DNA from: Chitinophagaceae bacterium
GTDB lineage: Bacteria > Bacteroidota > Bacteroidia > Chitinophagales > Chitinophagaceae
Direction of reading: 5' to 3'
Assembly: GCA_027489035.1 (NCBI GenBank)
Contig: JAIYAN010000013.1
Span: forward strand, 4,141-68,140
DNA length: 64,000 nt
Part shown: piece by piece, positions 38,932-60,434 of the stretch
Layout: each line of letters opens with the position of its first letter
Numbering within the stretch: position 1 is the first letter of the stretch
The notes under the pieces: model-generated
What the model saw: only the letters and a program-made list of their open reading frames with translations
Databases searched by the model: none
What the model was told of the DNA's origin: nothing
Translations under genes and position numbers: made by a program

Positions 38932-39480
38932 ATGAAAACACATTTTGATATAGAAAAAATTGTAGAAATGGGCATAATCACCAGTGAATTGGATTATGAA
39001 AGGGCGTTAATTGCGGATAGAAAACTAAGGCTACTTGGGAAGGAAGATGTACATTTTAAACATCTAAGAAAAAAGTTGCGCAACATCATTGAAAAGTATG
39101 AAAATAAGGAATGGAGTGTAGTTGAAAGCATTGATGATAATAAACTTTTAGAAAGCGAGAAAGCGGAAAAGTTTGCAGAATTAGAAAGACAATTTTTAGA
39201 AACCAGAAAAATAGAAATCAGAAAAAAACTAAAAGTGCTTGAACTCACTCAAGAAAATCTGGCTTCAATATTAGGTCATAAAAGCAAGACGCACATGTCG
39301 GAATTGATGAATGGGATCAAGCCATTTACGCTAAGGGATATAATTATTATACATCAACTATTAAAAATAGAAATATCAACATTGATACCTGTGTTTCTTT
39401 CAAAAGAGGAACAAAACAAAATAAACAGAGCGGTTGAGAAATTAGATATATCGAAAGGTGTGAGGATTGGGTATTTGTGA
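38932..39480 (+). CDS. XRE-family HTH protein, HigA-like antitoxin
   Basis: SELDYERALIADRKLR; LTQENLASILGHKSKTHMSELMNG HTH. Confidence 0.75.
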   Translation: MKTHFDIEKIVEMGIITSELDYERALIADRKLRLLGKEDVHFKHLRKKLRNIIEKYENKEWSVVESIDDNKLLESEKAEKFAELERQFLETRKIEIRKKLKVLELTQENLASILGHKSKTHMSELMNGIKPFTLRDIIIIHQLLKIEISTLIPVFLSKEEQNKINRAVEKLDISKGVRIGYL

Positions 39481-39645
39481 TGGAATTGGAATGATTTTAA
39501 GTTAGTTGATTCGAACACAAATAGTAGTAAATAAAAAATACCATAATTTTTAAATATTACAGGAAAAGATATATTTTTGAAGAGGGTGTGTGAGATATAA
39601 ATCTGGCATAAGAGGATTATGGGCAAGTTTGATGACAGACAAAAT

Positions 39646-39707
39646 AGTTGAGACAAGAAAACAACTAAAAAAACAGGGAGCATTCAGAAAATCCAAAAGA
39701 GTAGGAA
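39646..39707 (+). ncRNA. Cassette-leader structured RNA, copy A
   Basis: AGUUG/CAACU hairpin; GGA..UUCA-GAAAA-UCC..G-AGUA-GGAA; 20 nt before ATG 39728. Confidence 0.7.
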
Positions 39708-39727
39708 CAAATTTTTAAAAAAACAAA

Positions 39728-40234
39728 ATGAAAAATTTATTGATTTTAGCAACAATGTTGCTTTCGTTTGGAGCCGTAAATGCTCAAAATCATATTATGA
39801 CATATGATGGTTCATCGTCAGGGGGGAGCGGTTTATTTACAATTGTTGGTAATAACATAATGAGTTATGATGGATCATCTTCAGGGGGTAAAGGTATTTA
39901 CACGATTGTCGGTAATAATATTATGACATATGATGGTTCATCTTCTGGAGGGAGAGGTGTTGCAACTATTAATGGAAATAATATAATGACATATGATGGA
40001 AGTTCTTCAGGTGGAAAGGGAATTGCAACATTTGTAAATAATAATATTATGACTTACGATGGAAGTTCTTCAGGTGGAAAAGGTATAGCCACAAAAGTAA
40101 ATAGCAATTTAATGACTTATGATGGTTCGTCATCTGGCGGAAGGAGAATTTTAACCTTTAAAGATCCATATATGTCCAAGCCAACTTTTGCAGCAATATT
40201 ATTGGCAAAAGGGATTATTTGGAGTGGAAATTAA
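39728..40234 (+). CDS. Secreted tandem-repeat protein (6 x 21-aa IMTYDGSSSGG repeats)
   Basis: Signal peptide ending VNA-Q; repeat period 63 nt with synonymous variation. Confidence 0.85.
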   Translation: MKNLLILATMLLSFGAVNAQNHIMTYDGSSSGGSGLFTIVGNNIMSYDGSSSGGKGIYTIVGNNIMTYDGSSSGGRGVATINGNNIMTYDGSSSGGKGIATFVNNNIMTYDGSSSGGKGIATKVNSNLMTYDGSSSGGRRILTFKDPYMSKPTFAAILLAKGIIWSGN

Positions 40235-40375
40235 ACCAGCCAATAAAACGGGTTTGGCAAAAGTTGCGGTTTATTGCTCCGCAGACACATTTGTGGTTAA
40301 TCAAAGTTTGGTTCTACGCATCAACGTATGTGGTGAAAACCGCCAACTTCTTTTAGCAGCAAACCGTTAACATTC
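40235..40375 (+). mobile_element. attC-like imperfect palindrome 1
   Basis: Starts right after the stop (CAGCCAATAAAA); arms AAGTTGCGGTTT / AAACCGCCAACTT; ends CCGTTAACA. Confidence 0.65.
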
Positions 40376-40388
40376 ATTCATAAAAAAA

Positions 40389-40423
40389 CAGGAGGAAGCC
40401 GAAAATCCTTAATAAGAGTAGGC
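40389..40423 (+). ncRNA. Cassette-leader structured RNA, copy B (pseudoknot domain only)
   Basis: AGGA..GCC-GAAAA-UCCU..G-AGUA-GGC; 26 nt before ATG 40450. Confidence 0.7.
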
Positions 40424-40449
40424 GAAAATTTTAAAAATAAAACAGTATT

Positions 40450-40881
40450 ATGAAAGAAAGTTTTGAAAAACTGGCAGCTGCTATCATCTATTCAGATGGC
40501 GAGGTGGCTCCAAGCGAGTTAAGCCAACTCGAAAAACTGGCTACTGACATAGGTACTGACAAAGCAGCTATGGTAGCTTCCATTGAGGCAGAAATTGAAA
40601 AGCTGAAGCCTATGGATGAAGAAGAATTTCAGCAGTACATGAAAGATGCAGCTTCAGGCATTACAGAGCCTGAGCATCGCTACAAAGCCTTTGATGCGAT
40701 GTTGGAACTTACCTTGGCCGACAATTCTTTGGATGATTTAGAAACCAATGTATTGGGCAATATGTCACAATACTTGGAAATTCCCATTCATTATTTTGCC
40801 AATAATTTGGCTTTTCAAGTCAAGGCAAAAAATGTAGAAATCTTTGCACAAAAAAGTTGGCAAAAACCTGTAGAAATTTAA
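40450..40881 (+). CDS. TerB-like helical protein
   Basis: Two TerB-type half motifs: AIIYSDGEVAPSE and LTLADNSLDDLE. Confidence 0.7.
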   Translation: MKESFEKLAAAIIYSDGEVAPSELSQLEKLATDIGTDKAAMVASIEAEIEKLKPMDEEEFQQYMKDAASGITEPEHRYKAFDAMLELTLADNSLDDLETNVLGNMSQYLEIPIHYFANNLAFQVKAKNVEIFAQKSWQKPVEI

Positions 40882-40893
40882 AAACAAATAAAA

Positions 40894-40924
40894 ACGCGGA
40901 TACCGAAAAGCGAATAGAGTAGGC
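40894..40924 (+). ncRNA. Cassette-leader structured RNA, copy C (pseudoknot domain only)
   Basis: CGC..ACC-GAAAA-GCG..G-AGUA-GGC; 22 nt before ATG 40947. Confidence 0.7.
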
Positions 40925-40946
40925 GTAAAAACTTAAAATCATTAAA

Positions 40947-41150
40947 ATGTCTTTTACAAATATAAAGCTAAAAGGGGGCAAAGTTGGACAAGTATACCAA
41001 ACAATAAATTACTTTTCCGAATCAAAAAACTGCAAATGGTGTGGTAAGGAGATTAAACAACATAAGGCAGTTTTTGAAGCAGATGGTGATGGTTCGAAAC
41101 CATGTTGTGGCATGGCGCATGCGAAGGCATATATGAATGCAAAAATATAA
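40947..41150 (+). CDS. Small putative zinc-binding protein
   Basis: 67 aa; CKWC...CCGMAH ligand set. Confidence 0.6.
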   Translation: MSFTNIKLKGGKVGQVYQTINYFSESKNCKWCGKEIKQHKAVFEADGDGSKPCCGMAHAKAYMNAKI

Positions 41151-41227
41151 TTACAGTCAATTAAGTGCAGGGCGTATATCATAAAATTTATGCCTTGCAT
41201 TTATGTTCAATTAAACAGAGTTTAATA

Positions 41228-41752
41228 ATGACTAAACCAAAAATTAAGAACACGATTGTCGCAATTAGCGAAGGCTTGTTGGGTAAAGCTGTTTTTAACT
41301 CAAAAATCAATATTTCTGAGGCTTATTCAGAGTATATGCTTTATGAGCCTATCGTACTAATAGCAAACAGAAACTGGAATGTTCAAAGTGAAGTCCAACT
41401 GACTTCATTAAAAAGCAAGGGACGGGGCGACAATAAAAAAATTGATTTTGTTTTAACTGATTTGGAGAACAATGACCGTTCTATTGCTTTGGAGGTCAAA
41501 TACATAAAAGGGGTCAAATCAAAAATCAAAATTGATGCAGACATTGAAAAACTATCAGCCTTTAAAACTGAAAAGTCTTCAAAAGATACAAAAGCTTTTT
41601 TGATGATTTTATGGAAAGAACATTCAAATCGCGACAAACATCGAACCCGAATATCACAAATTGGTATAAAGAAGTATTTTGAATGTTCTTTTGAAACAAA
41701 TTTAAAGCAGAAATATGTAGTCACTGTGTTTGAAATATACACGAAACGCTAA
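41228..41752 (+). CDS. PD-(D/E)XK nuclease-fold protein
   Basis: VQSEV..L...KKIDFVL...IALEVK catalytic-motif spacing; ATG 41228 preferred over the upstream alternative start at 41165. Confidence 0.6.
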   Translation: MTKPKIKNTIVAISEGLLGKAVFNSKINISEAYSEYMLYEPIVLIANRNWNVQSEVQLTSLKSKGRGDNKKIDFVLTDLENNDRSIALEVKYIKGVKSKIKIDADIEKLSAFKTEKSSKDTKAFLMILWKEHSNRDKHRTRISQIGIKKYFECSFETNLKQKYVVTVFEIYTKR

Positions 41753-41816
41753 AAGCGTGTAATCGATATTGCCCCTCCCTTTGCGCCATCGCCTACACGC
41801 TAACCGTCATAAGCAA
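41745..41816 (+). mobile_element. attC-like palindrome 2 (short)
   Basis: CGCTAAAA overlaps the stop; GCGTGTA / TACACGC arms; ends CCGTCATAAGCAAT. Confidence 0.5.
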
Positions 41817-41863
41817 TTTTAGAACACCAAAAAACATATAATTAACAAAAGAAAAAGAAAAAT

Positions 41864-42343
41864 ATGAAAAAACGTAAAATAATATTTATAACATTTTTAC
41901 TACTTGTTTTAGGGTTGGTTGTTTATTACTTTTATCCAGAGCAGCATATAAAAGACGGGCAAAAAGCGGATAAAATTGTTGTTAATAAAGCTGCTCACGA
42001 ACTTCTGCTTTATTACAAGGATGAACTTGTTGCTTCTTATTCGGTTTCGCTAAGTAAAAATGGGCTTGGTAAAAAAACAATGAAAGGCGATAACCTCACA
42101 CCTGAGGGTAGTTTTAAAGCAAAAAAAGGACTTAAAACTAAATTCCATAAAGCAATTGGCGTTGGAGAGTGGGAAGATTGTTGCGTCGTTAGAATACACG
42201 GACTCGGAGAACAATTTGGTTGGGTTGGAAAATTCCACCGTTGGGTAGATTTGTCGGAAGGATGTATTGTTCTTACCAATAATGAAATTGATGAAGTGTA
42301 TAAAGCAACAGTAGTAGGCACAAAGATTGAAATCAACCCTTAA
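41864..42343 (+). CDS. L,D-transpeptidase (YkuD) family protein
   Basis: KIVVNKAAHELLLY, GDNLTPEG, IHG...SEGCIVL (His/Cys). Confidence 0.85.
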   Translation: MKKRKIIFITFLLLVLGLVVYYFYPEQHIKDGQKADKIVVNKAAHELLLYYKDELVASYSVSLSKNGLGKKTMKGDNLTPEGSFKAKKGLKTKFHKAIGVGEWEDCCVVRIHGLGEQFGWVGKFHRWVDLSEGCIVLTNNEIDEVYKATVVGTKIEINP

Positions 42344-42362
42344 CAAAACTGATATAATAAAT

Positions 42363-42471
42363 GCTGCCTTTAACAACACAATTACAATAGGCGGCGGTTC
42401 AGTGCTCCGCATCAATATTTGTAGTGAAAATCACCACCTTCGCCTACGCGCTGAACGACGTTATGGGAAAG
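42363..42471 (+). mobile_element. attC-like palindrome 3
   Basis: GCCTTTAAC ... TAGGCGGCGG / CCACCTTCGCCTA ... CGTTATGGG; interior is a shortened version of palindromes 1 and 7. Confidence 0.6.
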
Positions 42472-42527
42472 TTTAAACGTCATAGTGGTTAAAAGCAGGC
42501 TGACCACCTAAAGTGACAAACAAAAAT

Positions 42528-42588
42528 ACTGGAGTCAAGAAAACCACTTTAAAACAGCGAGGATTCCGAAAATCGACAAGAGTAGGAA
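42528..42588 (+). ncRNA. Cassette-leader structured RNA, copy D
   Basis: UGG/CCA hairpin; CGA..UUCC-GAAAA-UCG..G-AGUA-GGAA; 22 nt before ATG 42611. Confidence 0.7.
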
Positions 42589-42610
42589 ACACTTTAAAAT
42601 AAAATAAAAA

Positions 42611-43063
42611 ATGGCACAGGAAATGTATAAACATGATGCATTGCTTCACTTATTGTGGGCAGTTGCAAATGCAGATACTACATCAGATGATCAAAAATAT
42701 GGTGATGCAGTATCCAGTTTAGAAGATGAGTATTATGAAAAGGTTAAAAAGGCAGAAGGAATTGATATTTCCTTTTCAGAAATTGCTGATAAGCGCAAAG
42801 CGTTAAGAAATAGCATTGGATCTGATGGAATCATTAACGAAGCACTGAAGGCTACAAATGGTTGTAGCAAAGAATGGAAAGCGAAAGTAATTGTTTATAT
42901 GATTAAGATGTCTAATAGATCATGGGGCGGTGATTATCTATCGAATGGCGAAAAAATTAATATCTCTGATAGTGAATTTGAAATTATCAAAAAGGCTAGA
43001 AAATACTTAGGTTTAACTGAAGAAGAAGAACAAAAAGGTTGGGACTTAATAAAAGGCTCATAA
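42611..43063 (+). CDS. TerB-like protein
   Basis: LLWAVANAD...LEDE and ISDSEFEIIKKARKYLGL. Confidence 0.6.
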   Translation: MAQEMYKHDALLHLLWAVANADTTSDDQKYGDAVSSLEDEYYEKVKKAEGIDISFSEIADKRKALRNSIGSDGIINEALKATNGCSKEWKAKVIVYMIKMSNRSWGGDYLSNGEKINISDSEFEIIKKARKYLGLTEEEEQKGWDLIKGS

Positions 43064-43193
43064 CAACGCATAAGCAATAGCAGGGCGGAAGTGCTTCATT
43101 GAACTTCTGCCCTTTTTTGTAATTTGTAACTTGTGTTAAGCTTTGGTGCTTTTAAGCCCGCCCATCACAAATCTGCAAACCTTTATGGGCAAG
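43055..43193 (+). mobile_element. attC-like palindrome 4
   Basis: GGCTCATAAC overlaps the stop codon; GGGCGG/GCCC arms; ends CTTTATGGGCAAG. Confidence 0.6.
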
Positions 43194-46211: not shown

Positions 46212-46215
46212 CAAT

Positions 46216-46320
46216 ATTGTAACATCGTATTAGCAATATTAGGGCAAAAGTACTTCATTGAACTTTTGCCCTTTTTTTATTTGTTCTAGTTAAAAACTTT
46301 GGTATTTTTAAAAAATGTAA
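46216..46320 (+). mobile_element. attC-like palindrome 5 (degenerate)
   Basis: Shares AGGGC..AAGT.CTTCATTGAACTT.TGCCCTTTTT with palindrome 4. Confidence 0.5.
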
Positions 46321-46406
46321 TAGTCAATATTCAGTGCTTTAAAGGATATTGAATAAAAGAAAATAATTTTCTTAAACAAATAATACTAATAATTAAATTT
46401 ACATTA

Positions 46407-53322: not shown

Positions 53323-53545
53323 ATTTTCGAGAATGGGATTTAAAACTTCTATCATTTTGCCTACATATAAAATTGTTAAAACCTAAGATAGTTTCTCCAA
53401 TAAAAACACTTTTAACAAACCCTTGTCAATAAACGTCTTTAATTTTCCAAGGTTCGTAATTGTTTCGTGAAACGTTAATTCGTTTATGCAACACCGTTAC
53501 CATTCAATTTAATTAGTGTTTTATCATAACCGTAAATTTTATTAA

Positions 53546-54376
53546 ATGAAAATTATTTTTTTTACTTTTTCACTATTTATGACAGCCTTTAATTGTATTG
53601 GGCAGAATGTTGAAAACTTAACGCTTCAATATGGATTTAATCGATTCAAAATTGAGAAAAAATATAAGTTGATTATTGATAGTGTTATTGATGGAAAGTC
53701 ATTTCAGGAAATTAATATTGAAGCCCATTGTGATTTTGTTGGAACCATGGATTACAATGATTCATTGTCATTAAAAAGAGCAATGGAAGTAAAAAATTAT
53801 TTGATCTCAAAGAACATTAATGAAAACGTAATAAAAGTATTTGCTCGAGGTAAAAGAATTCCATTGGTTGAAAATACAGATGATATTTCGCGTGCTAAAA
53901 ACAGAAGGGCCGAAATTCAATTTACTTTAAAACCCGCCGAAACTACACAGTATATTGACACGATTGATAAAGTTGTCATTGATAGCTTAGACTTAAACAA
54001 CTTGGAAGTTGGGGCTACATTCCGGTTGGAAAACATTAATTTTTATGGCGGTAAACATTTATTTCTAGAAAGTTCAATGAACGCTCTAGATAATTTATAT
54101 TATTCGTTAAACGCCTATCCACATCTGGAAATTGAAATACAAGGCTACATTTGTTGTTCCAATAATGGCGAGGATGGAGTGGATCTTGGAACAGGAACAC
54201 CGAATTTGTCGGAGAATAGGGCGAAAGCTGTATACGACTTTTTAATTCAAATGGGAATTAGTCCCCAAAGGCTTAGTTATAAAGGATATGGATCGTCAAA
54301 AAAATTAGTTGAAGAAGTTACGGAGAATGACAGAATAACAAATCGAAGGGTTGAGATAAAAATTTTAAAAAAATAA
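53546..54376 (+). CDS. Protein with two OmpA-like peptidoglycan-binding domains
   Basis: LSLKRAMEVKNYL...KNRRAEI and LSENRAKAVYDFL...TNRRVEI. Confidence 0.9.
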   Translation: MKIIFFTFSLFMTAFNCIGQNVENLTLQYGFNRFKIEKKYKLIIDSVIDGKSFQEINIEAHCDFVGTMDYNDSLSLKRAMEVKNYLISKNINENVIKVFARGKRIPLVENTDDISRAKNRRAEIQFTLKPAETTQYIDTIDKVVIDSLDLNNLEVGATFRLENINFYGGKHLFLESSMNALDNLYYSLNAYPHLEIEIQGYICCSNNGEDGVDLGTGTPNLSENRAKAVYDFLIQMGISPQRLSYKGYGSSKKLVEEVTENDRITNRRVEIKILKK

Positions 54377-54502
54377 AAAGCCCGTTAAGGTATCTAATAA
54401 CAATTATTTCCACCATTAATAAAACTAAAAGTTATATTTTTAAAAAGTCTTTGTGAGAATGGATTTATAGTGTAAGTGCGCCAAATCAAAATTTTTAAAA
54501 AC

Positions 54503-55087
54503 ATGTACATACAGAAGAAGTTTGTATTAGCATTGACAGTATTTGGAATTATTCTTTCAGTATTTTTAAGCAGTTGTAAAAAGGAAGTTGAATGCCCTGG
54601 TTTACCTTATCAAATGGAAGGGTATTTCCCATCAGTCAATGAGTTGAAGTTTAGCAATGGGATTGGCGACACTTTGCTTTTACCTGTTGACAATTATTCT
54701 CGCTCTATTCCGCGCACCTTGTCTAATAACCCTTTAAGCGTTGGTGGAACTGGAGCGAAGCCGTTTTGTATAGAGACTCTCGAAGCATGGTCTTCGATGA
54801 ATATTCCAGTTTATTGGTCTTTTAAATTTGCTGTTTCGGAAGATGCTAAAACTACAGAAATCAATTTTACAATTACTGAAGCATTTATATCTACGAACAG
54901 TTTTAACAAGGTAGTAAATGAAACGCCGAGCACATTAGGCGATTACAAAGTATTTGGAGATACGTTAGTTATGTCTGCGATTCAGCCGCCTGTGGCAAGA
55001 TTTAGTGAGGCTCAAATTGTTTATGGTCAGGGATTGGTGAAGTTGCACGATGTGGTGAATAATTGCGATTGGACAAGAGTTTGGTAG
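54503..55087 (+). CDS. Hypothetical lipoprotein
   Basis: Lipobox LSSC; ATG 54503 preferred. Confidence 0.65.
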   Translation: MYIQKKFVLALTVFGIILSVFLSSCKKEVECPGLPYQMEGYFPSVNELKFSNGIGDTLLLPVDNYSRSIPRTLSNNPLSVGGTGAKPFCIETLEAWSSMNIPVYWSFKFAVSEDAKTTEINFTITEAFISTNSFNKVVNETPSTLGDYKVFGDTLVMSAIQPPVARFSEAQIVYGQGLVKLHDVVNNCDWTRVW

Positions 55088-55338
55088 TCGATCCTGGCTT
55101 TTGTAAAGCGAAAAAATAATGTATGGTCAGGAGTTGGAAAAATCTTTAGAAATAGAAAAGTTAATGCGTCAACAGAAACCATTTCATTAATCGATTAAAA
55201 ATAAATAAAAAAAAATAACCCGAAACAGATTTTGCTTTCAACATCGTCTATCAGGATTTAAATGATGGGAAATGTGTAGATAAGAGAAATTAACTGCGGG
55301 TATAAGGGAGTTATGCCCAATTTTAGAAAAATAGAACC

Positions 55339-56139
55339 ATGAAAATATTTACTGTAGATACTTTTACAAACAAACCTTTTACAGGAAACCAAGCTGGAGT
55401 TTGTATTCTTGATAAAGACATAGATGATAGTTTAATGTTACAAATTGCTAAAGAACTAAATTATTCAGAGACAGCATTTGCTTTACCACTAGAAGAAAAT
55501 TTTAATAAGTTTAATTTGAGATGGTTTACCCCAAAACAAGAAGTAGATTTATGTGGACACGCAACATTAGCAACTTCTAGAGTACTTTACGAAATTGGAT
55601 TAGTAAATAAAAATCTTTCTATAGATTTTGAAACAAGAAGCGGTGTACTGGTAACTAATATTTCAGGGGAAAAAATTATAATGAACTTCCCATCAAGGCA
55701 AGTAAATCAAAGCAATGCAGACGAAATCATTATTAAATTTACACAAGCAAACCCAGTCTTTGTAGGGATTGATGAAAATTGGTGCTTGGTGGAGCTAGAG
55801 AATGAAAAAGCAGTAAAATCAATAACTCCTGATTTTGAATTATTAAAAACGCATAGGCAAAAGGTTTTTACAATTACAGCTAAATCTGATAATCCAGCGT
55901 TTGATTTTGTTTCTCGATGTTTTGGTCCAGCGGTTGGGATAAATGAAGATCCAGTTACAGGATCAGCACATTGTTATTTGACTCCATATTGGGCAGACAA
56001 GCTAAGGAAGAAAAAATTAACAGGCTTTCAAGCTTCAGAGAGGACAGGGAAAATAGAGTGTGAATTAATTGAAAACGGAAGAGTACTTTTGACTGGGGAA
56101 AGTTTAATAATGTGTGAAATAAAACAAAACTGGGCATAA
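55339..56139 (+). CDS. PhzF-family isomerase
   Basis: VDTFTNKPFTGNQAGV, NYSETAF, EVDLCGHATLA, EDPVTGSAHC. Confidence 0.93.
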   Translation: MKIFTVDTFTNKPFTGNQAGVCILDKDIDDSLMLQIAKELNYSETAFALPLEENFNKFNLRWFTPKQEVDLCGHATLATSRVLYEIGLVNKNLSIDFETRSGVLVTNISGEKIIMNFPSRQVNQSNADEIIIKFTQANPVFVGIDENWCLVELENEKAVKSITPDFELLKTHRQKVFTITAKSDNPAFDFVSRCFGPAVGINEDPVTGSAHCYLTPYWADKLRKKKLTGFQASERTGKIECELIENGRVLLTGESLIMCEIKQNWA

Positions 56140-56270
56140 CAGGCGTTTGGTTCAATGGCGGGTGCAGTGGTTAATTGAACATTGTACCTCGCATCAACTT
56201 TCCTTGTATATTGACAGTATAATTATCCAAAATCCCCACTGCGCCAAGCAAGGGAACGCTGGCTGCAACC
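56131..56270 (+). mobile_element. attC-like palindrome 6
   Basis: TGGGCATAAC overlaps the phzF stop; TTGG..GGCGGGTGCAG / CCCCACTGCGCCAA arms; ends GCTGGCTGCAACC. Confidence 0.65.
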
Positions 56271-56337
56271 TTAATTGATCTCCAGTCCTAAAATAGGTTG
56301 ACCAAATCAATCAAAGACTATAAAGTAATTAAACTTT

Positions 56338-56994
56338 ATGATTAAAATGACCAAAAAAATCATACTATTTCTCTCAATCTTAACTAGTTTTAGTTGTGAA
56401 ATATATGCTCAAAATTATTATTTGGGTTATAACTATGGATTTAGTTGGAATGGAGTAAAGAGTAATGGAAATCCAATCGGTACATCACAAAATAATTTTT
56501 GTACTGGATTAATTTTTGAAGTTATTACAAAAAAGAAACTACGTTTAGGTGCAGAGATTTTGTATGAAAAGCGAGGTTTCAATCTTGGCTATGCAGTTAT
56601 TTTTAACAACTTTGATGAACGATTCTTAACAAATTACCACTACCAGAACTATTTATCAATTCCCCTGAAGATTGGCTATCAGACAGGAAATAAAATTTAT
56701 GGCTATGGCGACATTGGGTTAGCTCCAGCATTTAATTTAAAGTCCACTTTTAAGTATCCTAAAATAGACAGCTCATCTAATATTATTGGTGAAATAACAG
56801 AGAATGAACAATTAGAAATAAGACCTTTTGATCTTAGTGCTTTAATAGATTTTGGAGTTGGATACAACTTAACAGAAAAAATTTCGATTTTAAGTTCAAT
56901 AAGAATACAAAAAAGTTTATTTGAGTTCTCAAAAGATTATCAAATGTCCCATAAGGCTACAACCCTATTTTTGTCTTTAAGATATAAGTTATGA
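56338..56994 (+). CDS. Outer-membrane beta-barrel (porin/PorT-like) protein
   Basis: Signal peptide; EILYEKRGF, YLSIPLKIGY, C-terminal LRYKL. Confidence 0.8.
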   Translation: MIKMTKKIILFLSILTSFSCEIYAQNYYLGYNYGFSWNGVKSNGNPIGTSQNNFCTGLIFEVITKKKLRLGAEILYEKRGFNLGYAVIFNNFDERFLTNYHYQNYLSIPLKIGYQTGNKIYGYGDIGLAPAFNLKSTFKYPKIDSSSNIIGEITENEQLEIRPFDLSALIDFGVGYNLTEKISILSSIRIQKSLFEFSKDYQMSHKATTLFLSLRYKL

Positions 56995-57027
56995 AAATGA
57001 ATTTATAGAGATAAGAATGATATAAAA

Positions 57028-57166
57028 GGTAGCAGCCAACACATTTACAATTGGCGGGGTTTTATGCTCTGAAGACAATTTTGTGGTAGCCAAAAGTTTA
57101 GTTCTCAACATCAATATTTGTGCTAAAAAATCCGCCCATCGCAAATCTGAAAACCGTTAAAGCCAA
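57028..57166 (+). mobile_element. attC-like palindrome 7
   Basis: GGTAGCAGCCAAC ... TTGGCGGGGTTT / AATCCGCCCATCGCAA ... CCGTTAAAGCC; interior homologous to palindrome 1. Confidence 0.65.
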
Positions 57167-57694: not shown

Positions 57695-58039
57695 ATGAAA
57701 TTCATAAAATCATTCGTTTTGGCTTTCATATTATTGACTGCCACAACAAACATTGCGTTTTCGCAAACAACATCTACCCAAACTACAACAGACAGTTTAA
57801 AAACTGCAACCATTAAGGTTAAAGGCATTAATTGTTCAAAGGACTTAAAAATGATTTCTGCCAATGTAGATAAAGTAAAAGGCGTGAGCAGTAGCAAGGT
57901 ATTAAAACAAGGAACAGTAACCACCTTTGAAGTAAATTACAATCCTACATTAGTAGCAGAAAAGGAAATTTTTGCAGCCATTGAAAATACGGGAACTTGC
58001 GAAAATCCTGACGAAAGACGTTACAAAATAAAACAGTAA
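57695..58039 (+). CDS. Exported heavy-metal-associated (HMA) domain protein
   Basis: Signal peptide; IKVKGINCSKD...KVKGVSS. Confidence 0.75.
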   Translation: MKFIKSFVLAFILLTATTNIAFSQTTSTQTTTDSLKTATIKVKGINCSKDLKMISANVDKVKGVSSSKVLKQGTVTTFEVNYNPTLVAEKEIFAAIENTGTCENPDERRYKIKQ

Positions 58040-58202
58040 TACCCAATTGAATTATAAACTAGTCCATAATTTTCTAGTATTATGCCGATGTGGTAACTGT
58101 TTGGGACAATTTCATTGGACCATTACAGATATCCAATCGGTATAAATAATTTAAAGTGCAGTGCATTTAAAATCCACTACACTACTTTTTAAAAACAAGA
58201 CA

Positions 58203-60434
58203 ATGAAAAAATACATCTTCATTCTTGGTTTACTGTTTCCGTTTGGCTTATCGGCTCAAAAAATATTAGGAAAAGTAACCAACGACAAAAAAGAACCTAT
58301 TATTGGTGCAAGAATATATTGGCTTGGCACTGCTATTGGCGAAACAACAGATAACCAAGGAGCGTTTCAAATTTCTACTACAGACATTTCAAATAAAAAA
58401 CTCATTGCAAGTTATGTGGGGCATTCATCAGACACCATTGAAATCATCAATCAAACCTTTGTTGAGTTCCACTTGCAGGAAACAAAGACACTAAATGAAG
58501 TGGTTGTACAAGGACAAAGAGACGGCGTAATTATTTCAGACATCAATCCAATAAAGACCGAGCAAATAACACAAACGGAACTTAAAAAATCGGCTTGTTG
58601 TGACCTTGCAGGATGTTTTGAAACTCAAACCACTGTGCAACCACAAACGACCAATGTAATAACGAACTCTAAAGAACTGCGCATTTTGGGTTTATCGGGC
58701 GTTTACAATCAGGTATTGATTGATGGTTTCCCATTGATACAAGGCTTGTCGTACACGTATGGCATCAGCACTATTCCAGGCACAATGGTTGACAACATTT
58801 ATATTTCAAAAGGTGCAAACAGTGTATTGCAAGGATATGAAAGCATTAGCGGACAAATAAATGTTGAAACGAAAGAACCCGACAAAACAGACAGCTTGTT
58901 GCTTAATGTTTATGTGAACAATTTTATGGAAAAACATTTTAACGCAAACTATGCTTTCAAAAAAAATAAATGGAGCAACTTAACAACGTTTCATACGGTA
59001 CAACCAGCTAATAAAATTGATCGAGACAATGATAAATTTCTAGACTTGCCTTTGCTAACCCGTTATATGATTTCCAACAGATGGAAATACGGAAATGAAA
59101 AAGAATGGGGTTGGAATAGTCAAATAGGTTTACGTTTTTTTAACGAACAACGTATTGGCGGACAAACCTTCTTTAATCCCGAAAGAGACAAAGGCAGCAC
59201 CAGTGTTTACGGACAAAGTGTACAGATCAACCAACCTGAAATTTGGACAAAAACGGGTTATCGTGTAAATGATAATCATAACATTGTTTTGTTTGCTTCG
59301 AGTTTTCATCAACAACAAAATTCATTTTTTGGAACGGTAAAATATGATGCACAGCAAACGAATTTTTACGGAAACATTCAGTATGAGCTGAGCTATGCCG
59401 AACACGAATTAAAAACAGGCATCAGTTACCGTCATTTGAATTTGAAAGAAGATATTGCTTTTACCGACACCTTGTTGCAACGGACATATGCCGGAAAATA
59501 TCAACGATTGGAAAATATTCCCGGAATTTTTGCCGAAAATACATTCCGATTTTTTGATGATAAACTCACTTGGATTGTAGGCGTTCGGGGCGACCAACAT
59601 AATCAATTTGGTTTTCAGTTTACGCCAAGAACTTTACTTAAATACGACATCGCACAAAAAACGATTGTTAGGGCAAATGTTGGAACAGGTTGGAGAACGG
59701 TAAATTTATTTAGCGAAAATATCGGATTACTTGTAAGTTCACGTGACATCATTTTTGCGGAGCAGTTACAACCCGAGAAAGCGTTAAATTTTGGCGTTAA
59801 CTTGACACAAAAGTTTGAAACGAAAAACAATAATCTATCAGGTTATTTAAGTGTGGACTATTACCGAACAGAATTTCAAAATCAAATTTTTCCTGATTAT
59901 GACAGTGACCCTACAAAAGCAATTATTAAAAATTTTACAGGAACAAGCGTGAGCAATGGTTTTCAGGCAGAGTTGTATTTGAAATTTTATAAAAGGGTTG
60001 AATTGAAAACGGGATATAATTTTTTAGATGTTTACAGGGAAATTGGTGAAACTAAACAGTTATTGCCTTTCAATCCAATGCATAAATTCATAACAACTTT
60101 CAGTTACAAACCAATGACGAATAAATTTCACTTTGATATGAATGTGCATTGGTTTGGAGAACAACGATTGCCAGACACGAAATCAAATCCGATAGAATTT
60201 CAGCGACCTGATTTTTCAAAACCATACACAACTGTAAATGCACAATTCACGTACAATTTAAAAAAGTTTGAAGTTTATGCAGGCTGTGAAAACATCTTAG
60301 ACTTCCGACAAAAACAACCGATAATCAGTTGGCAAGGCCCATTTAGCCCATATTTTGACACGTCTTCCGTTTGGGGTCCGACGCGAGGAAGGGAAATTTA
60401 TGTTGGCGTTAGATTTAAGTTGAATAAGAAATAA
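58203..60434 (+). CDS. TonB-dependent receptor (heavy-metal-associated type)
   Basis: ELKKSACCDLAGCFET plug motif; WGPTRGREIYVGVRF C-terminus; ATG 58203 preferred. Confidence 0.9.
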   Translation: MKKYIFILGLLFPFGLSAQKILGKVTNDKKEPIIGARIYWLGTAIGETTDNQGAFQISTTDISNKKLIASYVGHSSDTIEIINQTFVEFHLQETKTLNEVVVQGQRDGVIISDINPIKTEQITQTELKKSACCDLAGCFETQTTVQPQTTNVITNSKELRILGLSGVYNQVLIDGFPLIQGLSYTYGISTIPGTMVDNIYISKGANSVLQGYESISGQINVETKEPDKTDSLLLNVYVNNFMEKHFNANYAFKKNKWSNLTTFHTVQPANKIDRDNDKFLDLPLLTRYMISNRWKYGNEKEWGWNSQIGLRFFNEQRIGGQTFFNPERDKGSTSVYGQSVQINQPEIWTKTGYRVNDNHNIVLFASSFHQQQNSFFGTVKYDAQQTNFYGNIQYELSYAEHELKTGISYRHLNLKEDIAFTDTLLQRTYAGKYQRLENIPGIFAENTFRFFDDKLTWIVGVRGDQHNQFGFQFTPRTLLKYDIAQKTIVRANVGTGWRTVNLFSENIGLLVSSRDIIFAEQLQPEKALNFGVNLTQKFETKNNNLSGYLSVDYYRTEFQNQIFPDYDSDPTKAIIKNFTGTSVSNGFQAELYLKFYKRVELKTGYNFLDVYREIGETKQLLPFNPMHKFITTFSYKPMTNKFHFDMNVHWFGEQRLPDTKSNPIEFQRPDFSKPYTTVNAQFTYNLKKFEVYAGCENILDFRQKQPIISWQGPFSPYFDTSSVWGPTRGREIYVGVRFKLNKK

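Follow-up and report, generated by a model that had tools for sequence, protein, structure and literature searches.

Two probable integron-type gene cassettes, phzF and porin, with self-complementary ends in a Bacteroidota chromosome

Did two neighboring accessory genes on a Bacteroidota chromosome arrive there as discrete gene cassettes, and can the ends of these units be read from the DNA? The question is raised by 64,000 nucleotides of a Chitinophagaceae bacterium (GenBank assembly GCA_027489035.1, contig JAIYAN010000013.1, positions 4,141 to 68,140, forward strand), the whole of which is called the window here. It contains a gene of the PhzC-PhzF family (phzF) followed by one for an outer-membrane beta-barrel protein (“porin”). 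A ~131-nt imperfect palindrome stands after both open reading frames (ORFs), and similar elements stand after other small plus-strand ORFs between 39.6 and 46.3 kb. An earlier, sequence-only reading of the window had proposed that these genes arrived as separate circles, with the complementary ends of each unit as the main argument. We find it very probable that phzF and porin are two adjacent integron-type cassettes, the last ones of a cluster of attC sites lacking an integron-integrase (CALIN). The proposed arrival as discrete units is supported, in the form of cassettes, by the ends, by predicted folds, and by a copy of the phzF unit in another genome. By the convention that places the boundary at G|TT, the phzF cassette spans 55311-56258 and the porin cassette 56259-57156; the positions of the individual features are given in Table 1.

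Paired ends and attC sites of the two cassettes

The perfect 10-bp reverse complement that the sequence-only reading had described at the ends of the phzF unit, overlapping the stop codon, is present exactly where it was placed (GTTATGCCCA, 55310-55319, and TGGGCATAAC, 56131-56140; the TAA stop at 56137-56139 lies inside the R'' arm). When the arms are lengthened, 14 of 15 positions form Watson-Crick pairs (GTTATGCCCAaTTTT against the reverse complement GTTATGCCCAgTTTT); the sole mismatch, A/C on the top strand, becomes G·T when read on the bottom strand, where 15 of 15 positions pair. The porin unit had been said to start at 56258 with ends complementary at 11 of 13 positions (GCTGGCTGCAACC at 56258 and GGTAGCAGCCAAC at 57028-57040), which was borne out, and its lengthened arms form 13/15 Watson-Crick and 14/15 bottom-strand pairs. 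An alignment with relatives fixes the same boundary. Their sites end in ...CACTGCGCCAAGCGCCAAAAC|GTTAGCTGC and the window has ...CACTGCGCCAAGCAAGGGAAC|GCTGGCTGC, so that the R' core of the phzF attC lies at 56258-56264 and reads GCTGGCT, its GTT having changed to GCT. A start of the porin cassette at 56271 (GCAACC|TTAATTG), with 56258 inside the phzF attC, was overturned by this alignment.

For either cassette, the reverse complement of the 15-nt R'' extension has one other match in the window, namely, the 5' end of the same cassette, while 0.00 (phzF) and 0.09 (porin) matches are expected in shuffled sequences. No partner arm for a 5' end was found downstream of the porin attC. Bare 10-bp inverted repeats ~800 bp apart are not rare in 64 kb, where by our own arithmetic ~10^2 pairs are expected, and the weight therefore lies on this position-specific match of the 15-nt arms.

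To compare own with mismatched ends, cassette boundaries were taken from a covariance model and not from complementarity, the C of AAC being placed at match start + 8 and the G of GTT at match end - 6. The sample comprised 67 unique cassettes of at most 2.5 kb each, from the genome itself, from arrays in seven other genomes, and from one contig of a metagenome-assembled genome (MAG), L038. From each cassette, the initial 22 nt were set against the 22 nt that close with its own AAC, taken as the reverse complement. At positions 4-18, own ends matched at 8.87 of 15 positions, compared with 5.48 for mismatched pairs (sd 1.93, 4422 pairs) and 6.07 for R'' and R' of the same in-array site; the excess over mismatched pairs has a permutation p<=5e-5. 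Of the 4422 mismatched pairs, 0.86% attain 11/15, the score of both the phzF and the porin cassette. The signal spans positions 4-15 only and is at background from position 16; own ends agree in 63-90% of cassettes at positions 4-10 and 12-15, versus 28-60% for mismatched pairs. Position 11 is a conserved A in the 5' arm opposite a C in the 3' arm, with Watson-Crick pairing in 4% and bottom-strand G·T in 75% of cassettes, own and mismatched alike. A smaller, earlier test of own against mismatched ends had the same outcome. The sequence-only reading had itself named own ends no better than mismatched ones as the result that would count against it, and the opposite was found; its statement that the 5' core of a cassette is complementary to its own 3' inverse core held on average for the 67 cassettes, in which the 5' end matches the cassette's own R'' and not that of the upstream site.

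The attC sites were modeled from a 23-sequence alignment of window sites and copies from relatives. RNAalifold gave an 18-pair stem with compensatory double changes at 15 of the 18 pairs, and this stem together with the AAC/GTT pairs constitutes covariance model (CM) R1, with which the window was scanned with filters off. All matches in the window lie on the plus strand, after ORFs, and their layout is that of an attC: ...RYYYAAC, spacer, L'', variable loop, L', spacer, GTTRRRY. The AAC and GTT triplets are both intact in 78 of 98 modeled sites. The consensus fold of the 23 sites has no bulged extrahelical bases, and the sequence is unusually conserved despite the covariation of the stem. The L stem has two unpaired 1x1 positions, with top-strand A·C in 14/23 sites at one and in 19/23 at the other, which corresponds to G·T on the bottom strand.

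It had also been suggested that the circular cassettes be rebuilt in silico and their attC sites folded. A re-formed site was made by joining the 3' part of a cassette (R'' extension through G) to its own 5' end, and DNA folding parameters were used. The re-formed phzF site folds with a 15-bp closing stem, and its bottom-strand energy is -22.3 kcal/mol, compared with -14.8 kcal/mol for the in-array site; the corresponding porin values are -23.6 and -13.6 kcal/mol. Among 70 cassettes, the re-formed site was the better one in 58 (mean, -27.0 versus -22.0 kcal/mol; p about 1e-10), in agreement with the expectation that rebuilt circles give better attC sites. The bottom strand folded better than the top strand in 56 of the 70 (-27.0 versus -23.5).

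Each cassette comprises a single ORF with a short leader before it and an attC hairpin of ~131 nt behind it. In the mechanism that we propose, the first ~15 nt (GTT + 12) of an excised cassette, as a circle or as a single strand, would pair with the 15 nt ending in its own R'' AAC, and the attC hairpin would be closed by this pairing of own ends. A site-specific crossover at GTT or beside it would split the stem, one arm staying at the 3' side and the other becoming the 5' end, so that the two ends of a cassette would be complementary to each other and not to the neighboring cassette. The recombination chemistry, the bottom strand as the substrate, and the exact crossover base are what we infer here.

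The phzF cassette in other genomes and the state of the array

With the PhzF protein, one genome per species was scanned. A 95%-identical protein is encoded on JBKDXR010000045.1 (L038), which belongs to a MAG labeled Flavobacteriales. At the DNA level, the match is 94.4% over 961 bp (window 55310-56268), extends from the G of GTTATGCCC to just past the R' core, and includes the whole attC hairpin. In L038, a complete attC of this family stands before the copy (...gcccgaaaac|GTTATGCCCAATTTT...), and unrelated GC-rich DNA comes after it. On JBKDKI010000035.1 (L045), from a MAG labeled Sphingobacteriaceae, the copy of the phzF cassette is rearranged: the first 155 bp (87%) and the attC (83%) are present, with different genes between them. 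Recurrence of the same unit with the same ends in other contexts, a check proposed by the sequence-only reading, was thus seen for phzF in L038 and not for the porin. Orthologs in conserved neighborhoods without these ends, which had been named as contrary evidence, were not found. End complementarity had been ranked as the strongest evidence; we judge the cross-genome phzF copy to be stronger. It indicates that the phzF cassette has moved between MAGs labeled as different Bacteroidota orders.

The porin is an orphan accessory gene, with no homolog at E<=1e-30 in 400 genomes of the order, and the end test is the sole argument for its mobility.

Several observations weigh against the cassette interpretation of the phzF and porin units. 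The left junction of the phzF cassette is with unrelated, non-attC DNA and may be a secondary site or what is left of an attI-like one; the covariance-model scan of the 64-kb window gave no attC at this junction upstream of 55310. The R' triplet is GCT in both phzF copies in spite of different DNA past position 3, which a classical G|TT crossover would explain only if T->C had arisen twice. For the porin cassette, neither the 400 genomes of the order nor a metagenome scan yielded a second copy. In the upstream part of the array, the own ends of two units (40366 to 41753 and 42460 to 43064) match at background level. Finally, the case is built on sequence, and excision and recombination are inferred events.

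Some of these points can be specified further. The position of phzF next to unrelated DNA is also that of the recombinase-proximal first cassettes in relatives; no shared attI motif was evident between window 55240-55309 and the first-cassette junctions of relatives, and ORF 54476-55087 contained no integrase remnant. GCT at R' occurs in three sites (window 56258-56260, L038 at about 3921, and G163 at joined coordinate 40221) and retains the bottom-strand G·T pair. Either T->C is recurrent and tolerated, or crossover takes place not at G|TT but on the 3' side of position 2; the informative variant triplets are too few to place the crossover base, and positions 1-3 are invariant.

A clean empty site was sought in the closest relative, G076, and none could be demonstrated; both flanks lie there on one small contig in a different order. 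On this 3.3-kb contig (G076:C197), an OmpA-family gene is downstream of a TonB-receptor gene, and comparison with window 53411-54343 and 58881-59200 indicates that the flanks of the phzF-porin pair are ordered differently there. Just before the TonB-dependent receptor gene of the window, a ~110-nt intergenic element (58035-58146) was observed, with 83-95% identical copies on four other contigs of the same genome and many in G076, G050, and G053. It has no Rfam match at gathering score; a regulatory RNA is one possible reading, a dispersed repeat another.

What remains of the array in this genome was also assessed. The best TIGR02249 score for an integron-integrase in the genome was 81.5 bits, versus a cutoff of 265 bits; a search for the array-type recombinase of relatives returned only Xer-like genes of at most 76 bits, and no recombinase remnant was found in the 64-kb window. 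The genome has eight model matches on three contigs, and AAC or GTT is mutated in 7 of 9 own sites, compared with 13 of 89 in relatives (Fisher p=1.5e-4). At least two clustered attC sites with no integron-integrase nearby make the locus a CALIN. Lacking an array-type recombinase and with most of its sites mutated, the array is now a decaying fossil, of which the phzF and porin cassettes are a terminal, immobile remnant. Outward-facing PCR, which had been proposed as a check, would be expected to be negative on this strain, as the genome has no integrase.

Array-adjacent recombinases in relatives and rival explanations

According to the model, the attC family occurs in 112 of 151 genomes of the order (62 of 82 genera) and in 116 of 251 genomes (46%) across Bacteroidota, including other classes, where scores exceed 120 bits. 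Long arrays are present in G163 (about 67 kb, more than 30 sites) and G169 (at least 134 sites). The array cassettes of such genomes carry accessory and defense-type genes. In one region of G169 (L062-L065; G169:C5:1-66456), dozens of identical attC sites of 53.7 bits each follow one another at ~306-nt spacing; these repeated units are tandemly amplified, with only ~170 nt between sites.

A search for the tyrosine recombinase adjacent to these arrays was bimodal, with 175-386 bits for one group and at most 81 bits for Xer genes. Seven of the 11 high-scoring recombinase genes have an attC within 5 kb, downstream and codirectional, and three further recombinases are divergent beside arrays (G016, G030, and G028); none of 16 Xer-like genes is near an attC. 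The 5' end of the first cassette was predicted 105 nt after the recombinase stop in G163 (14/15), 210 nt before the recombinase start in G030 (14/15), and 52 nt before it in G016 (11/15). The array recombinases are closest to archaeal XerA (PDB 4a8e, 125 bits), with 101 bits to VchIntIA (2a3v), and in the alignment, residues 183-248 of VchIntIA (66 residues), which we take to hold the IntI-specific insertion, are replaced by 23 residues. They score 159-185 bits against TIGR02249 (cutoff, 265) and are also below the NF040815 cutoff. Thus, with this segment missing and sub-cutoff TIGR02249 scores, no IntI-type integrase with the additional domain was found beside the arrays of relatives. Public records label these recombinases XerD or “tyrosine-type recombinase.” One of these proteins, from a genome of the window's own genus, carries the label Chitinophagaceae, in line with Chitinophagales as the probable order of the window. 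In G030 (C5, L027 16176-18099, minus strand), the first cassette by the recombinase holds an AAA_21/AAA_15 ATPase and an HNH endonuclease; this pair within one 2-kb cassette resembles a defense system.

It is tempting to regard the window as a fossil of integron-like platforms that occur throughout Bacteroidota and combine a XerA-like recombinase without the IntI insertion, a bulge-free attC of ~134 nt whose three conserved positions with bottom-strand G·T and top-strand A·C could set the choice of strand, and a split R stem of 15 bp; we offer this tentatively, at somewhat less than even chances.

The most serious competing view is that the cassettes are canonical ones, moved by a classical IntI from elsewhere, and that the Xer-like recombinases beside the arrays are unrelated neighbors. 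Two features are indeed classical, namely, how the attC is built (AAC...GTT, R and L boxes, variable loop) and the rule of end complementarity, and 4 of the 11 high-scoring recombinase genes have no listed attC within 5 kb. Yet neither the genome itself nor the seven array-carrying relatives has a TIGR02249 match over the cutoff, the linkage of recombinases to attC (7/11 and the three divergent cases versus 0/16 Xer-like genes) has a binomial p of about 6e-9 if arrays cover 3% of the genome, and the predicted first-cassette 5' ends lie only 52-210 nt from the recombinase genes. On balance we consider such an origin unlikely.

Far less probable are two explanations that dispense with cassettes altogether. 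The paired ends might reflect chance or the family consensus (GTTRnC.../...GnYAAC) without cassette-specific pairing, as the ~10^2 bare 10-bp repeat pairs expected in 64 kb of AT-rich DNA and the two window cassettes at background would allow. Against this, the 15-nt extensions found exactly the predicted site where 0.00 and 0.09 matches were expected, and the mismatched pairs, which own ends exceeded at p<=5e-5, control for the consensus; we hold this explanation to be very improbable. An equally slim chance is given to the phzF unit being a small transposon or an element like a miniature inverted-repeat transposable element (MITE), with the 14/15 inverted repeat around a single gene as its terminal inverted repeats. 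There is no target-site duplication (the flanks are ...AAGGGA|GTT and AAC|AGGCGT) and no transposase, and the 15-mers are unique in the window. Moreover, the right arm is the R'' box of a covarying 131-nt hairpin that runs past it, the next unit begins at the final base of this hairpin, and the L038 copy includes all of it.

Relation to known systems and the upstream part of the array

Hall, Brookes & Stokes in 1991 and Stokes et al. in 1997 reportedly described the 59-base element with the core GTTRRRY and the inverse core RYYYAAC, and the first bases of a cassette are said there to derive from its own 59-base element. Under this classical rule, own-end complementarity is an expected property of real cassettes. 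The units described here are like integron cassettes in having one ORF and one imperfect palindrome each and in forming same-orientation arrays, and their sites are like integron attC sites in the conserved AAC...GTT triplets, the structure kept by covariation, and the 5' end that matches the cassette's own inverse core. Unlike in classical attC sites, the paired R stem has 15 bp and not about 7, the consensus fold is without extrahelical bulges and has three conserved top A·C/bottom G·T positions, and the ~134-nt site sequence is conserved across the whole phylum. The principle is thus ordinary, and the surrounding system is likely a new variant of the integron kind.

CALIN are clusters of attC sites without an integron-integrase (Cury et al. 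2016; Neron et al. 2022, PMC9024848). The window is like them in having at least two successive attC sites and no integrase in the genome, and its mutated core triplets fit decay. CALIN are, however, defined relative to IntI-type integrons, whereas the complete platforms of relatives also lack an IntI-type integrase, and under the IntegronFinder criteria, all of them would therefore probably count as CALIN. Salinibacter was the only Bacteroidetes genome in which IntegronFinder 2.0 found a complete integron (PMC9024848). With sedentary chromosomal integrons, such as the Vibrio VCR arrays, the arrays of relatives share their length, chromosomal location, homogeneous attC sites, and accessory or defense-type cassette genes. 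In contrast to these integrons, in which attC homogeneity is at the species or genus level, the present family spans classes, and the orientation of the integrase is mixed, codirectional and divergent. Compared with the XerA and XerC-XerD tyrosine recombinases (PDB 4a8e and 5hxy) and VchIntIA (2a3v), the array recombinases of relatives are nearest to XerA; they share the IntI catalytic core and form a group distant from the housekeeping Xer genes of the same genomes (<=81 bits).

At base resolution, these data confirm the status of the accessory genes as discrete mobile cassettes. The 15-nt end rule is a simple means to delimit cassettes and find attI-type junctions, and a 15-bp split R stem, if true, lets cassette ends be read to the base. 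If a Xer-like recombinase drives the arrays, then the IntI-specific domain and extrahelical bases would not be universally required for cassette recombination.

Table 1. Features of the phzF and porin cassettes and of the upstream part of the array, in window coordinates; own-end counts are for cassette positions 1-15
Feature	Position	Strand	Evidence or remark
phzF cassette 5' end, R' core (G|TTATGC) and extension, GTTATGCCCAATTTT	55310..55324	+	homology to the L038 copy begins here
phzF ORF, 266 aa, PhzC-PhzF family	55339..56139	+	Pfam PF02567, 217 bits
R'' extension and R'' inverse core of phzF attC, AAAACTGGGCATAAC	56126..56140	+	pairs with 55310-55324
phzF attC, 133 nt by model	56132..56264	+	CM R1 86.2 bits, E 1e-19; alignment with relatives
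Porin cassette 5' end, GCTGGCTGCAACCTT	56258..56272	+	
Outer-membrane beta-barrel (“porin”) ORF, 218 aa	56338..56994	+	Pfam PF13568, 51 bits
R'' extension and R'' of porin attC, AAGGTAGCAGCCAAC	57026..57040	+	pairs with 56258-56272
Porin attC, intact AAC...GTT triplets, final site of the array	57032..57162	+	CM R1 88.3 bits
Upstream part of the same integrase-less array	39616..43188	+	CM R1, end complementarity; first 5' end 39616, ATTATGGGC
attC	40239-40372	+	CM R1 86.6 bits
attC, short, weak	41745-41812	+	CM R1 13.5 bits
attC, short	42366-42466	+	CM R1 19.7 bits
attC	43056-43188	+	CM R1 83.9 bits
Decayed AT-rich attC remnant	46215..46344	+	CM R1 23.5 bits, E 0.001; nhmmer match
Own ends, repeat-protein unit	39616 -> 40247		Watson-Crick 11/15, bottom-strand 12/15
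Own ends	40366 -> 41753		Watson-Crick 7/15, bottom-strand 10/15
Own ends	41806 -> 42374		Watson-Crick 9/15, bottom-strand 12/15
Own ends	42460 -> 43064		Watson-Crick 9/15, bottom-strand 9/15

For the upstream part of the array, the sequence-only reading had listed two weaker cases of paired ends. The one of the repeat-protein unit is real and in fact strong (Table 1). An R'' position at 40249 for the 40239 site was rejected, as the model and MAFFT place it at 40247 (AAC mutated to AAA), which changes the own-end match from 2/15 to 11/15. In the 42460 unit, the described pair is present, but complementarity does not rise above background: beyond GTT it is 7/15, indistinguishable from mismatched pairs (5.5 +/- 1.9). 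The label “TerB-like” given to this unit was misplaced, the ORF with a TerB domain being 40450-40881, and the ORF at 42611-43063 has no Pfam match.

Directly upstream of the first cassette junction, ORF 38932-39480 (182 aa) has the look of an XRE-type helix-turn-helix protein (…LTQENLASILGHKSKTHMSELMNG…) and no Pfam match. It was considered as an integrase remnant and rejected, as it resembles a helix-turn-helix protein.

The 5' leaders of the upstream-array cassettes contain DUF805 (RF03081, six copies) and DUF805b (RF02914, two copies) RNA motifs, between 39642 and 45022; the phzF and porin cassettes are without them. A literature search yielded no description of this system and nothing that links DUF805 RNA, or attC arrays of Flavobacteria or Bacteroidota, to a Xer-like integrase, although such a negative does not prove novelty. 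Within its variable loop, the 43056 attC holds a terminator-like hairpin followed by a T run (GGGCGGAAGTGCTTCATTGAACTTCTGCCCTTTTTT, 43083-43118), and a copy of this hairpin is retained in the decayed site at 46215 (46240-46275).

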